A DNA stretch of 64,000 bases, from contig OZ024742.1 of the NCBI GenBank assembly GCA_964016885.1, positions 56,234,001-56,298,000 of the forward strand. The letters are read 5' to 3'. The stretch comes from Eledone cirrhosa (taxonomy: Eukaryota). Each line of letters begins with the position of its first letter. The stretch's first letter is position 1. Positions 6,964-63,763 of the stretch are shown here, piece by piece. Below the pieces are notes generated by a model, which saw only the letters and a program-made list of their open reading frames with translations, did no database searches and was not told the DNA's origin. The position numbers were made by a program, and so were the translations under genes.

Positions 6964-7436
6964 TAGGAACCAGTAAGACCCCGACAGCTGAGCTCAAGCC
7001 GTTTCGACGGCTAATTCTGGACTAAATGAAAATGTATCCTGGTATTTAAATAGCCGATCTTCTCAAGGGGTAATTCCATATATGGTCAAAGTGATTGTCA
7101 AAAATTACCCACTCTACTACCTCAAGTATTGAGTACTTTGGTGCGTTATGGTCCACCTGGTTCCTTACCACATTTCCTTCGTTATATATATATATATATA
7201 TATATATATATATATATATATATATATATATATATATATATATATATATATATATATATATATATATATATATAACGATGGAAATGTGGTAAGGAACCAG
7301 GTGGACCATAACGCACAAAAGTACTCAATACTTGAGGTAGTAGAGTGGGTAATAGGAACCAGTAAGACCCCGACAGCTGAGCTCAAGAGCCGTCGAAACG
7401 GCTTGAGCTCAGCTGTCGGGGTCTTACTGGTTCCTA
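6964..7436. mobile_element. Two head-to-head palindromic insertions of HHR element family A, separated by (TA)n
   Basis: The segments GGAACCAGGTGGACCATAACGCAC and GACCCCGACAGCTGAGCTCAAG occur in both orientations. The family recurs at 21617-21836, 35420-35590, 41690-41868 and 50984-51110. Confidence 0.85.
6978..7071 (-). ncRNA. Type I hammerhead ribozyme, U3-A8 core variant
   Basis: Minus strand: ACCCC-TTGAGAA-GATCGGCTA...TAGCCGTC-GAAA-CGGC TTGAGCTCA GCTG-TC^GGGGT. Confidence 0.8.
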
Positions 7437-7507
7437 TATATATATATATATATATATATATATATATATATAAGAAGAAATTAAAAGATGGTTTAAAAAG
7501 TTATATA

Positions 7508-7578
7508 TATTTTATTATGCGCATTTCAAAAGCAAATATCATCCTGGGACGATCGTTGCTTTCTCATCAGATAAAATA
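7508..7578 (-). ncRNA. Type I hammerhead ribozyme
   Basis: TATTTTAT-CTGATGA-GAAAGCAA...TTGCTTTT-GAAA-TGCGCA-TA^ATAAAATA; 8-bp helix I and palindromic helix III. Confidence 0.9.
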
Positions 7579-8077
7579 AGATAAAATGATATGATGCCTA
7601 AAAAGCACTTGTGAACAAGGAAGTGTCCAGTCGATACACACACACACATATATATATATATATATATATATATATATATATATATATAGTGTTAGCATCA
7701 TAAATAAGAGACAGTTTAATTTGTACATTTTATTACACTATTCCTTTATACGTATTCCTATATGCATACATAAACATGTTATTTACAGTTGTATAAAAAA
7801 GAAGTATAATTCTTTAAAATTTGGCACAAGGCCAGCAATTATCCCAGTATATTACTGGTACTTTATTATATATAATATATATAATACGACATTCCTCTCG
7901 CTTTCGTACTCTGTCTTTTTAGATAGATACATAGCTATAACGTCGCGTCCTAATAATAACTCTCTGTCTGGCTGCTTGTCTGCATTGACTTCGCTTCTAA
8001 CCCACCTTTAATTAATTATATATATATATATATATATATATATATATATATATATATATATATATATAATTATATAT

Positions 8078-9480
8078 TCGTGTACATATTTTCAACAGTA
8101 ATACTATACTATATATGTTCAACAGTAATACTATACTATACATTTTCAACAGTGATACTATACTATGCTATATATTTTCAACAGTAATACTATACTATAT
8201 ATGTTTAACAGTAATACTATACTAGATGTTTTCAACATTAATATTAAACTCTATATTTTCAAAGATAATACTGTACTATATATTTTCAACAGTAATACTA
8301 TAATATATATTTTCATCAGTAATACTGTACTATATATTTTCAACAGTAATACTGTACTATACTATATATTTTCAACAGTAATACTGTACTATATATTTTC
8401 AACAGTAATACTATACCATATATTTCCAACAGTAATACTGTACTATATATTTTCAACAGTAATACTATACTATATGTTTTAACAGTAATACTATACTATA
8501 TATGTTCAACAGTAATACTATACTATACATTTTCAACAGTGATACTATACTATGCTATATATTTTCAACAGTAATACTATACTATATATGTTTAACAGTA
8601 ATACTATATGTTTTCAACATTAATATTAAACTCTATATTTTCAAAAATAATACTATACTATATATTTTCAACAGTAATACTATACTATATATTTTCAACA
8701 GTAATATTGTACTCTATATTTTCAACAGTAATACTATACTATATGTTTTCAACAGTAATATTATACTATATATTTTCAAAGGTAATACTATACTATACTA
8801 TATATTTTCAACAGTAATACTATACTATATATGTTTAACAGTAATACTGTACTATATAATTTCAACAGTAATACTGTACTATACTATATATTTTCAACAG
8901 TAATACTGTACTATATATTTTCAACAGTAATACTATACCATATATTTCCAACAGTAATACTGTACTATATATTTTCAGCAGTAATACTATACTATATGTT
9001 TTAACAGTAATACTATACTATATATGTTCAACAGTAATACTATACTATACATTTTCAACAGTGATACTATACTATGCTATATATTTTCAACAGTAATACT
9101 ATACTATATATGTTTAACAGTAAAACTATATGTTTTCAACATTAATATTAAACTCTATATTTTCAAAGATAATACTATATATTTTCAACAGTAATACTAT
9201 ACTATATATTTTCAACAGTAATATTGTACTCTATATTTTCAACAGTAATACTATACTATATATTTTCAACAGTAATATTATACTATATATTTTCAAAGGT
9301 AATACTATACTATATGTTTTCAACAGTAATACTATACTATATATGTTTAACCGTAATACTGTACTATATAATTTCAACAGTAATACTGTACTATACTATA
9401 TATTTTCAACAGTAATACTGTACTATATATTTTCAACAGTAATACTATATCATATATTTTCAACAATAATACTATACTAC
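8078..9480. repeat. ~24-bp minisatellite (ATATTTTCAACAGTAATACTATACT) with higher-order repeats
   Basis: Tandem units. The variant unit CAACATTAATATTAAACTC recurs near 8233, 8615 and 9137. Confidence 0.9.
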
Positions 9481-9499
9481 ACAGACTGCTTATCGTTTG

Positions 9500-9599
9500 T
9501 TTATCCTAGCGAAGCTAGGTACGTCAGCTATATATATATATCTGGATGTCGTAGAACACGCCAATGGTAGCCGGGCGCCAGCCGGACGGGCCAGCTAGT
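9500..9599 (+). mobile_element. Two Helitron-like 3' ends
   Basis: Hairpin CCTAGCGAAGCTAGG followed by ...CAGCTA, and GCCGGGCGCCAGCCGGACGGGCCAGCTAG|T, which resembles the element end at 54099-54130. Confidence 0.55.
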
Positions 9600-9691
9600 A
9601 TATATATACATATATACATATATATATATACATATATATATATATATATTTATATATATATTTATATATATATTTATATATATATAGTAAT

Positions 9692-60936: not shown

Positions 60937-61035
60937 GTACAAATATATGTAAATAATGAGACTTTGACAACATAGTTGCTCACGAACGGATGCTATTGCA
61001 GGAATTTTAATTTATAGAATATGTAAAATACAAAC

Positions 61036-61139
61036 CTGTCTTTGTCGACAGTATCCCTTAGATCCTTCAGGTTTTCCATGGCTTTTCCCTTCATCGTCGC
61101 TAAAACATTTTTCATGAAGTTGTCCGGGTCATAATCGAT
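61036..61139 (-). CDS. M13 peptidase (neprilysin/ECE-like) internal exon, 104 nt
   Basis: ttttag|ATC...GACAG|gtttgt. Encodes IDYDPDNFMKNVLATMKGKAMENLKDLRDTVDKD(R), similar to the neprilysin segment LNYKEDEYFENII...KLREKVDKDEW. Ends in phase 2 and joins the next exon in frame. Confidence 0.88.
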
Positions 61140-61668
61140 CTAAAATATATAAGCAGGTAATAATAACTTATGAATTCAGCATGAAATGCTGTAATAAAGA
61201 AACATATCTATCTATTCAACAATCTCGATTTCAACATATATTATGTTGATCATATGCAAATACATTTGTATCGTCTCCATGCAGTAGCAAACAATACCTC
61301 ATCATTTTCATCACATATCACGTAGCTCAGATATTTTATATGCTATATTGATGACCTTTTCTATCATGTAATATACGAAGGGAAAATTCTTTCCTAGCAG
61401 TAATCTCGTTTTGTTACTTATCGTAATTACCATAATATTTGTAAATATTCAATGGTAATTCATAATTTATCTGTGTATACATAATAAATGTACAAAGTCT
61501 TCATATTCTTTGGAAACAGTATCAACAAAAGTAATGGGAAAACACCAGACTTGCTCTATTATATATATATATATATATATATATATATATATATATATAT
61601 ATATATATATATATATATATATATACGATATTAAACAAATGGAAACTCTATATTTATAAAACCATATT

Positions 61669-61734
61669 TATTTCATTATACATATTTCAGGGATACCATA
61701 TTAAAAATATGGCATGCCTTCGTCAGATAAAATA
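61669..61734 (-). ncRNA. Type I hammerhead ribozyme (family L)
   Basis: TATTTTAT-CTGACGA-AGGCATGCCATATT..AATATGGTATCCCT-GAAA-TATGTA-TA^ATGAAATA. Confidence 0.9.
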
Positions 61735-62589
61735 CAATATATAAACAGTTTTATAAATAATTTTGACGTACCCTATTATAAGCGACCATTACATTTGGAA
61801 GCTGTCTGGATAGTGATTTGTTTATAATTATTTAGTTATAGTGTTAAGCACAGTTAGAAAAGAGACGGAGAGAAAGAAAAAACGGAGGCAAAGAAAAAAC
61901 AGAGAGAGAAAGGGGAGAGGAAAAGAAGAAGATATATATAAATAGATAGGAGGAAGTGAAAAAGAAACAAGAAAGAAATAAGAGAGGCAAACGAAAGCAA
62001 CAGAGGGATAATAATTCACCATACAGATAATAATTCACCATATATATATATATATATATATAAATATATATATATATATATATATATATATATATATATA
62101 TATATATATATATATATATATATATATATATATATATATATATATATATATATATATTATATATATATATATATATATAAATAAATAAACAGACTAATTA
62201 AAGATGGCGTAAGCATGCAATGCAACGGGAGGAAATATAATAGCACCACTGACGATGTTGCAGATGTGCACCGAAAGAACTTTGATAGACTATATATATA
62301 TGTGTTTGTGTCTATATTGTATCTGTATTTTTGACCGTTGGTCAGTCAATGGAAACATTGAGGACCGAATAAATTAAATTAACCGATATAAAAGACACAG
62401 AAGCGAAAACCAACCAAACAGTGAGTGTGTTCTGTTATTAATTCTGGCAATATTACACAAATATGACCCTCCCCAAGTATAACAATATTTGTTTCGACAC
62501 ACGATTTCATATCAAAAACCTCGCAAAACTAATATATATATATATATATATATATATATATATATATATATATGTATATATATATATAT

Positions 62590-63110
62590 ATCGTTTCTGA
62601 ATTTGTTTAGCAAGATTCTTTATCTGAAAACGTGTGTTGAAACCGATATTGTTATACTTTGGGAGGGTCATGTTGCCAATAAGAAACACACTCACCAGTT
62701 GGTTTCACTTCAATTTATTATAATAAATTTATAAATTTAGGAATTTATAAATTTCCGGTTGGTTGGTTGGTTCCGCAACCAGATGGTTGTTTATATATTG
62801 TGAAACTTCTTTCGTCACACATTCTGTGACCTCTTCAGTGACTGGGGATTCTTTTCTTTGTTTTTTGTGCCACTTCTTTGTTCTGTCATACGCCAGATGG
62901 CGTAGGACAGAACAAAGGAGAGGCACAGAAGGTGTGACGAAAGAACTTTGACAATATATAAACAACCATCTGGTTGTGGAACCAACCAACCAACCAACCG
63001 GAAATTCATAAATTGCTAAATTTATAAATTTATTATAATAAATTGAAGTGAAAGCAACTGGTGCGTGTGTTTCTTATTGGCAACATGACCCTCCCAAAGT
63101 ATAACAATAT
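62590..63110. mobile_element. Family K palindrome, second copy (mutated HHR 62800-62842, minus)
   Basis: Near-identical to 53378-53840. Confidence 0.85.
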
Positions 63111-63427
63111 ATATATATATATATTATATATATTTATTAAAATAACAGATTAAGGTTTGAGCAAAGAATCGCTGCTTTCACCCTTAACGTGATCTTCTGA
63201 AACTAACAAAGTCAATCTATTTGTATGTAAGTATATATATATATATATATATATATATATATATATATATATATATATATATATATATACATACATATAT
63301 ATATACATATATACATACATATATATATACATATATATATATATATATACATACATATATATATATATATATATATATATATATATATATATATATATAT
63401 ATATATATATATATATATATATATATA

Positions 63428-63763
63428 GCAATGATATTAATAAATGGAAACTATATTTATAAAACCATATTTATTCTATTATATATATATTTCAAGGGTA
63501 CCAAACTTTGGTACGCACTCATCAGATAAACTACAAAATTTGTTTTATAAATAGTGACATACACAGGAATCAACCCTTGACGGTTCAGGTTCCGTTTGGA
63601 TAACCTGAACTGTTAAGGTCTGATTCCTGGATATGTACTATTTATAAAACATATTTTGTATTTTATCTGATGAGAGCGTACCAAAGTTTTGCTACCCTTG
63701 AAATATATATAATATAATAAATATTGTTTTATAAATATAGTTTCCATTTATTAATATCATTGA
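63428..63763. mobile_element. Family L head-to-head palindrome (HHRs 63475-63530 minus, 63661-63716 plus)
   Basis: TTTAT-CTGATGA-G..GTACCAAA/TTTGGTAC..T-GAAA-TATATA(TA)-TA^ATA in both arms. Confidence 0.85.

Follow-up and report, generated by a model that had tools for sequence, protein, structure and literature searches.

Head-to-head insertions of Penelope-like elements in Eledone cirrhosa: probable priming from both ends of a cut

The 64,000-nucleotide stretch of the Eledone cirrhosa genome analysed here (assembly GCA_964016885.1, contig OZ024742.1, positions 56,234,001 to 56,298,000 of the forward strand; hereafter the window) holds palindromic elements that are, judged from their sequence, Penelope-like retroelements (PLEs) and derivatives of these. 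The contig measures 379 Mb and the animal genome 3.0 Gb; the window itself has a GC content of 33.6% and is rich in (TA)n. Our analyses point to head-to-head insertions with one arm at each of two fixed 3' end sites, and we consider it likely that, where a short TA tract is cut, reverse transcription is primed from each of the two DNA ends, the template probably being one RNA. The rule of one end per site is the strongest regularity in the data and had been missed by the first-pass annotation of this DNA, which had proposed twin priming on a self-complementary TA target.

Results

The first-pass annotation had held that every palindromic insertion it could orient has its left arm on the minus and its right arm on the plus strand, and this polarity was borne out in 18 of the 18 listed structures, firmly in 16 and weakly in two. 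Self-comparison of the window returned inverted repeats at the listed places, with an arm identity of about 69-99.7%. Eight structures (those starting at 11095, 12816, 17158, 30158, 50591, 56497, 57456, and 63428) were oriented by an internal hammerhead ribozyme (HHR), the motif at 56497 being degenerate, and seven by the sense of the PLE open reading frame (ORF) in longer copies of the same family, namely 6964, 7273, 21617, 35420, and 41690 for family B and 53378 and 62590 for family J; the structure at 29326 was oriented by the HHR of its family together with an upstream endonuclease-like frame read by eye. The two weak cases are 36569, with an HHR-like motif seen by eye and missed by the scanner, a fold z of -2.3, and fixed TA ends, and 31863, for which the orientation relies on a fixed TA 3' end and a variable 5' end in two homologues only. 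HHRs were called with a purpose-made strict type I hammerhead scanner, which gave 18 matches in the window compared with 0.03 per shuffle; an Rfam scan of the window returned no family at gathering score. Single-strand folding was significant in 2 of 6 HHR candidates, few significant folds being expected because the motifs have a weak helix III, and was used for orientation in family H only.

Other parts of the annotation had to be amended. The inverted repeats are real, but the structures at 6964-7182 and 35420-35597 are staggered inversions with barely overlapping arms and not true palindromes, and the places were right but six boundaries were corrected. Central fusion of the 5' ends fails at 11095-12295, where the centre is taken up over about 600 bp by a TA/TG repeat that includes fragments. 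A tail on one arm had been omitted at 12816-15108, 31866-32300, 36494-36859, about 50445-50921, and 63428-63850, and the oriented element inside 29326-30146 is 29487-29975, the outer pair there being without orientation. Tail-to-tail neighbours occur in the window only across TA tracts (7104-7182 versus 7275-7353; 62460-62532 versus 62602-62674).

The same polarity was found beyond the window, in a 664-kb sample comprising the window, the adjacent 200 kb, and eight 50-kb blocks on seven contigs. Among its 88 HHRs, all 37 that lie within inverted-repeat arms point with their 5' side inward, the other 51 having no inverted partner; these 37 represent 18 independent palindromes, 15 of them outside the window (p 6e-5). 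Across six families (A, B, D, E, H, and J), we collected 87 head-to-head junctions with gaps of up to 60 nt, after removal of duplicate or overlapping loci and exclusion of two head-to-head pairs with gaps >100 nt. No fused tail-to-tail pair was present among the loci of these families, and each of the six tail-to-tail neighbours lies across a TA tract. Family F was left out of the arm tabulation because its internal TA swamped the alignments. The inverted 5' segment with an outward 3' end that marks L1-type twin priming is present.

Two fixed 3' end sites, at a distance of 56-120 nt from each other, characterize each of the six tabulated families, and solo copies use them as well. Where both ends could be placed, which was the case at all but 13 of the 87 junctions, one arm ends at each site in 14/14 pairs of family A, 22/22 of B, 20/21 of J, 4/4 of D, 5/5 of E, and 8/8 of H; with the same-site array at 17158-21483 included, the total is 73 of 75. 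The queries constrained the main arm only and not the partner arm.

The geometry of the arms bears on how they were made. Of the 55 pairs in the non-tandem families B, J, E, and H, 25 show a stagger of >15 nt (B 10/22, J 6/20, E 4/5, H 5/8), two more carry deletions that preclude copying, 20 are nested, and 8 are near-symmetric. Because a copy cannot extend beyond its template, neither arm of the 25 staggered pairs can have been copied from the other. Most arms overlap and end at internal TA sites, rather than being non-overlapping and poly(A)-primed. Divergence is lower from arm to arm than between loci (0.017 versus 0.041 in family B; 0.021 versus 0.038 in family J), and partner arms share a larger fraction of variants than do arms at other loci (0.48 versus 0.08 in B; 0.30 versus 0.06 in J). 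For 11 of 17 B pairs, the partner arm is closer than any other locus, and mutual closest arms are also found in six staggered B pairs (L215, L221, L223, L236, L237, and L239). In addition, with family A excluded from the count, short outer arms stop at most 6 nt from the inner site in 6 of 14 cases, compared with 1 of 13 among the control arms (post hoc p 0.0013), as would be expected of a reverse transcriptase (RT) that meets a second primer on the RNA it is copying. Taken together, these signals suggest that both cDNAs were probably made from one RNA.

The 43 junctions of families B and J comprise 21 with inserted or unaligned bases, 8 that are blunt, and 14 with 1-4 nt of microhomology; they were called with a stricter aligner, exact-match calling being confounded by copy variants. 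At least 2 nt of microhomology is found at 10 of the 22 insertion-free junctions, compared with about 16% of simulated joins. These junction types fit end joining, and the excess of microhomology does not separate the mechanisms. Several loci show further irregularities. At L123, L234, L240, and L202, the inverted arms have large internal deletions, suggesting template jumps during synthesis, and at L024, L029, L105, and L017 short repeated pieces of nearby element sequence lie at junctions or ends and resemble repeated slippage or templated end joining. In 8 of 23 loci of family A (57456-58782 in the window, L003, L007, L009, L010, L015, L016, and L017), an arm has its 5' end close to the predicted HHR cleavage site, at about -5 to +11 nt, a count biased by a query that started at that very site; the position of these ends suggests run-off at a self-cleaved RNA end.

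TA is closely associated with the outer ends. In read-through copies, 8 of the 10 end sites have 3-7 nt of alternating TA in the template, compared with 4-8% of background positions, and in D1 the TA is one base off. Flanking TA of at least 8 nt adjoins 83 of 86 palindrome outer ends, in agreement with the earlier claim that 3' ends mostly point into TA, and 28 of 30 solo 3' ends, but only 7 of 30 solo 5' ends, some of the latter perhaps being internal breaks. At the empty site of the solo insertion L233 there is a short TA tract of about 10-12 nt, which is longer after insertion. TA thus helps but is not strictly required: the proposal of TA-mediated priming agrees with the TA at 8 of 10 sites but not with site D2 or with the solo L200, described below.

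At one end site, the flanking repeat appears to grow. Site A2 has one TC unit before the TA in the template, and this single unit is kept in 35 read-through copies, whereas 16 of 18 A2 end entries (one end being listed twice) have 2 to at least 15 TC units, usually followed by TA. A1 matches are followed by TC in 0 of 59 cases, and long (TC)n occurs at 2 of 9 D1 ends. Slippage at initiation is far more economical than a pre-existing TA-CT-TA target always cut at the same border, and the gain of (CT)n at A2 suggests a stuttering reverse transcriptase.

The assignment to PLEs draws on families B and J, whose long copies supply the evidence for RT and GIY-YIG coding sequence. The sequence of family B forms the 3' end of an element of 3536 bp, whose 731-aa frame has RT (YRDD) and C-terminal endonuclease (YIG) motifs. 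A Pfam search with this frame gave 0 matches; its atlas neighbours, at 0.96-0.99, carry GIY-YIG/RVT_1 on part of their members. The P0001 protein has no Pfam match and no meaningful match among solved structures; it has a Cys cluster upstream of the YIG motif, which may resemble the Cys-rich linker before GIY-YIG in the Neptune clade. Upstream of family J, RVT_1 (E 1.8e-4) is followed by GIY-YIG (E 1.1e-3), both below the Pfam cut-off. At L231 and L232, the 3536-bp unit follows a 5'-truncated copy in a partial tandem of the pseudo-long-terminal-repeat (pLTR) type. A type I HHR with a short palindromic helix III is present in the pLTR, in degenerate form in family B, and a tail at one end with an inverted 5'-truncated copy is present as in endonuclease-containing (EN+) PLEs. 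Family A and the 17158-21483 array consist of tandem units, each with an HHR and without an ORF, and are retrozyme-like. L231 (minus 2798-4990) and L232 are near-intact, young full-length PLEs with the 731-aa frame, and 15 genomic copies of family B are 100% identical to the 135-nt query. A genome search with the family G query, which skips very common words, returned nothing. In six family D loci (L096, L098, L099, L102, L108, and L109), an interruption of about 100-190 nt lies close to the AT-rich HHR loop.

In the window, family B, the 3' end of the full-length PLE, is represented at 6964..7182 (locus L212; minus arm to the inner site B1, plus arm consisting of the 80-nt tail only and reaching B2; staggered and non-overlapping), at 7273..7436 (minus arm to B2, plus arm to B1), which stands tail to tail with the former across a TA tract, and at 35420..35597 (B1 arm minus, B2 arm plus; staggered), with variants at 21617..21836 (B2 arm minus, B1 arm plus) and 41683..41868 (B1-type arm minus, B2 arm plus). 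Family J, the 3' end of a PLE with RT and GIY-YIG, occurs at 53380..53842 (L171; J1 arm minus, J2 arm plus, 87-nt stagger) and 62591..63107 (L111; J2 arm minus, J1 arm plus). The family C insertion at 11095..12295 has HHRs on the minus (11219-11273) and plus (12112-12170) strands and unfused 5' ends around its microsatellite centre. In family D (12816..15108), which has an HHR in both arms, the minus arm runs to D1, then (CT)n, then TA, and the plus arm has a 77-nt tail that reaches D2. The retrozyme-like array at 17158..21483, with a unit of about 561 bp, three HHRs on the minus strand, and five on the plus strand, has both ends at the same site and is nested with a loop of about 35 nt; it is the one clear exception in the window. 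Family A (57456..58782; 541-bp unit) has a site-1 arm on the minus and a site-2 arm on the plus strand, and its centre lies at the predicted HHR cleavage site. Family E (29487..29975; L251) is staggered, with a tailed minus arm (site 2) and a plus arm at site 1, and family F (30158..31160), a tandem unit with internal TA, has its minus arm to F1, its plus arm to F2, and an HHR at minus 30427-30502. Family G (31866..32300) is a weakly oriented, near-perfect palindrome with a right arm about 38 nt longer. Family H (36494..36859; L266) has a 79-nt tail on the left arm and site 1 on the right; family I (50445..50921, start approximate) has a minus HHR and a left arm extended by a likely tail; family K (56497..57428) consists of a minus arm followed by tandem plus arms, its right end being about 60 nt longer; and family L (63428..63850) has HHRs in both arms and a tail of about 90 nt on the right. 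A further head-to-head PLE insertion, absent from the earlier list, lies at 9876..11108 and includes a GIY-YIG frame at 9994-10389 plus (PF01541, E 3.7e-7).

The window also contains further inverted repeats, mostly unoriented (38540-39463, 40480-41673, 49609-50143, 58905-59041, 16798-17003, and 50984-51115), and a decayed PLE-like coding sequence at 33300-34240 minus that extends up to a 400-bp TA tract, with no relevant Pfam match. A near full-length L1/Tx1-like long interspersed element (22258-27800 plus) has a zinc-knuckle ORF1 and an ORF2 with APE and RT and with breaks. RT-like fragments at 1949-2572 minus are RTE-like by eye, a 27-bp minisatellite of 51 copies spans 8086-9479, a degenerate 24-bp array lies at 996-1440, and the short interspersed elements of the window are presumably of the octopus-like kind, going by their appearance.

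Discussion

Our bioinformatics analyses support twin priming over the published self-priming model for these insertions. A GIY-YIG/RT protein, likely a dimer, would cut both strands in AT-rich or (TA)n DNA, and each 3' end would pair over 3-7 nt with a TA motif at one of the two start sites, which lie on either side of the tail; because TA is self-complementary, both cut ends could pair with the template. Before proceeding, the RT would often stutter and so add (CT)n or further TA. The cDNA started at the outer site would then stop at the inner primer or displace the inner cDNA, the RNA being left intact; PLE RTs are not known to have RNase H. Finally, end joining would connect the two cDNA 3' ends, whether bluntly, through 1-4 nt of microhomology, or with bases inserted. 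The twin-priming reading of the first-pass annotation is upheld in that both arms end at the fixed sites of solo copies and 25 of 55 pairs are staggered, and only in part as regards the role of TA. Its statement that each insertion generates a palindrome does not hold, since 26 of the 58 loci of family J and 4 of the 27 of family B were scored as solo; such solo 5'-truncated copies would result from priming at a single end.

In L1 elements, the second target end reportedly primes internally, giving an inverted 5' arm and central joining of the cDNAs, a model that is said to go back to Ostertag and Kazazian in 2001. The insertions described here would share with it the polarity, the inverted 5' arm, and the central joining; unlike in L1, however, both start sites are fixed and internal, the arms usually overlap, and the target is TA, with no poly(A)/T-tract pairing.

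Several observations weigh against priming from both cut ends on one RNA. Two ends at the same site occur both in the 17158-21483 array and at the J locus L121, the outer ends of three 32-39-nt inversions (L112, L183, and L194) lie at neither site, and 8 of the 55 junctions are near-symmetric, as fold-back would yield. The J arms are less distinctive than those of B, the partner arm being unmatched in closeness in only 4 of 18 pairs, the short outer arms L003 and L023 of family A do not stop at the inner site, and the shared variants could reflect two RNAs of one donor or later conversion. As for the role of TA, site D2 is mostly without it, and the empty-site search over 105 insertions gave two usable sites, both of solos and none for any palindrome, of which that of L200 has no TA tract and shows an apparent 9-bp duplication. 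It should also be borne in mind that the family loci are top similarity hits and not a random draw and that the junctions are known from assembled sequence alone. In a search of sequencing runs, three runs of one study shared about half of the words and may stem from the source sample, and none of the runs listed was of RNA; this result weighs neither for nor against the junctions.

An alternative with a published history is self-priming, in which antisense RNA or the first cDNA folds and copies itself, one arm thus copying the other; it was proposed in PMC3846280 for head-to-head repeats of PLEs. Fold-back accounts for the polarity and the shared variants and would suit the 20 nested and 8 near-symmetric pairs, the three short inversions, and the same-site array, but it is contradicted by the 25 staggered pairs, which include the six pairs of mutual closest arms named above, by the two further pairs in which one arm has sequence that the other lacks, and by arms without any overlap at 6964-7182 in the window, L197, and L222. 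Unless the stagger arose by later deletion, such arms refute fold-back as a general route. We therefore regard it as an unlikely source of these insertions at large: self-priming is probably not the general route and accounts for a minority class only, although it may explain L112, L183, L194, and the array at 17158. It is likewise rather unlikely that the two ends were primed on two RNAs held by a protein dimer, with the similarity of the arms stemming from a dominant donor or from later conversion. On two RNAs, overlapping arms need no strand displacement, a dimer has been predicted (PMC11167929), and PLE hammerheads may act as dimers (PMC4209133); yet this arrangement gives no reason for the near-absence of same-site ends (73 of 75 pairs having one per site) or for the short outer arms that stop at the inner site.

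Two further explanations are very improbable. Fold-back chimeras of library preparation, amplification, or assembly would suit the 99% identity of some arms and the fact that the junctions rest on the assembly, but the ends are element-specific, the polarity depends on sense, the arms are often staggered or disjoint, and they differ by 0.2-6.5% in families B and J and by up to about 30% in the window; a chimera-forming process has no access to end sites, element sense, stagger, or divergence, which makes an artefact very unlikely. Miniature inverted-repeat transposable elements (MITEs), or foldback DNA transposons with terminal inverted repeats that insert at TA, are equally hard to credit. 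Inverted arms flanked by TA do recall Tc1/mariner MITEs, but here the centre differs at every locus, the ends are unequal, the solo copies are 5'-truncated, and the long copies run into RT/GIY-YIG coding sequence. The fixed centre and equal ends of such transposons were not found, and the homologues of family G are too few for full exclusion there.

Priming from both cut ends on one RNA can be set beside what is known of PLEs. The head-to-head polarity and the one-sided tail are already published: in PMC3846280, head-to-head is called the most frequent PLE arrangement, one of the inverted pLTRs has an "optionally present" tail, and the route proposed for the head-to-head repeats is self-priming with an antisense template, and Craig et al. 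(PMC8557442) describe the same inverted structures and (TA)n bias, the mechanism being left undefined. As these two sources depict them, EN+ PLEs (Penelope/Poseidon, Neptune, and Naiad) share with the elements studied here an ORF with RT and C-terminal GIY-YIG, partial tandems, an HHR in the pLTR, an inverted 5'-truncated copy at the 5' end in head-to-head arrangement, a tail on one arm, and the (TA)n bias. Whereas the tail is there optional and 30-40 nt long, we find one arm per site in 73 of 75 pairs and tails of 56-120 nt, and whereas the mechanism is there undefined or ascribed to self-priming, the staggered arms here exclude self-priming as the main route. According to PMC11167929, the purified Anolis Poseidon protein PAc cuts and extends both strands in vitro on an AT-rich target, starts at two sites, one on each side of the tail, and is predicted to be a dimer, all of which agrees with our observations; PAc nevertheless started without primer-template homology, a further point against our interpretation given the 3-7 nt of TA at 8 of 10 sites. 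That paper does not link inverted insertions to this activity, and its single use of the word "inverted" concerns a blocking nucleotide. Family A and the 17158 array resemble the non-LTR retrozymes of PMC7229834 and bioRxiv 10.64898/2026.07.22.740005 in having tandem units (541-561 bp) with a type I HHR each, and no inverted two-site-ended insertion of retrozyme arrays was found in the excerpts of these two sources; those of PMC13282606, PMC2377424, PMC9977147, and PMC3649969 added nothing on mechanism.

What is new is the pair of fixed end sites with one per arm, the stagger, the shared private variants, and the stutter. A literature search, with key subscription papers outside its reach, found neither the one-end-per-site rule nor single-template signals nor stutter, and no case of twin priming applied to PLE inverted repeats or of RT-made microsatellites for PLEs. 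The model brings together the inverted copy, the tail on one arm only, and the activity on two strands and two start sites seen in vitro, and the thousands of candidate copies per family amount to a natural experiment that largely rules out self-priming. More tentatively, a dimeric Penelope enzyme may prime both cut ends on one RNA, one on each side of the tail, with its telomerase-related RT stuttering at each start on two-letter motifs; such elements would then make, beyond targeting, much of the genomic (TA)n/(GA)n microsatellite as well as thousands of palindromes. If the stutter is true, the "microsatellite insertion bias" of PLEs would in part be their own product, which would bear on how microsatellites originate and how PLE RTs are linked to telomerase.

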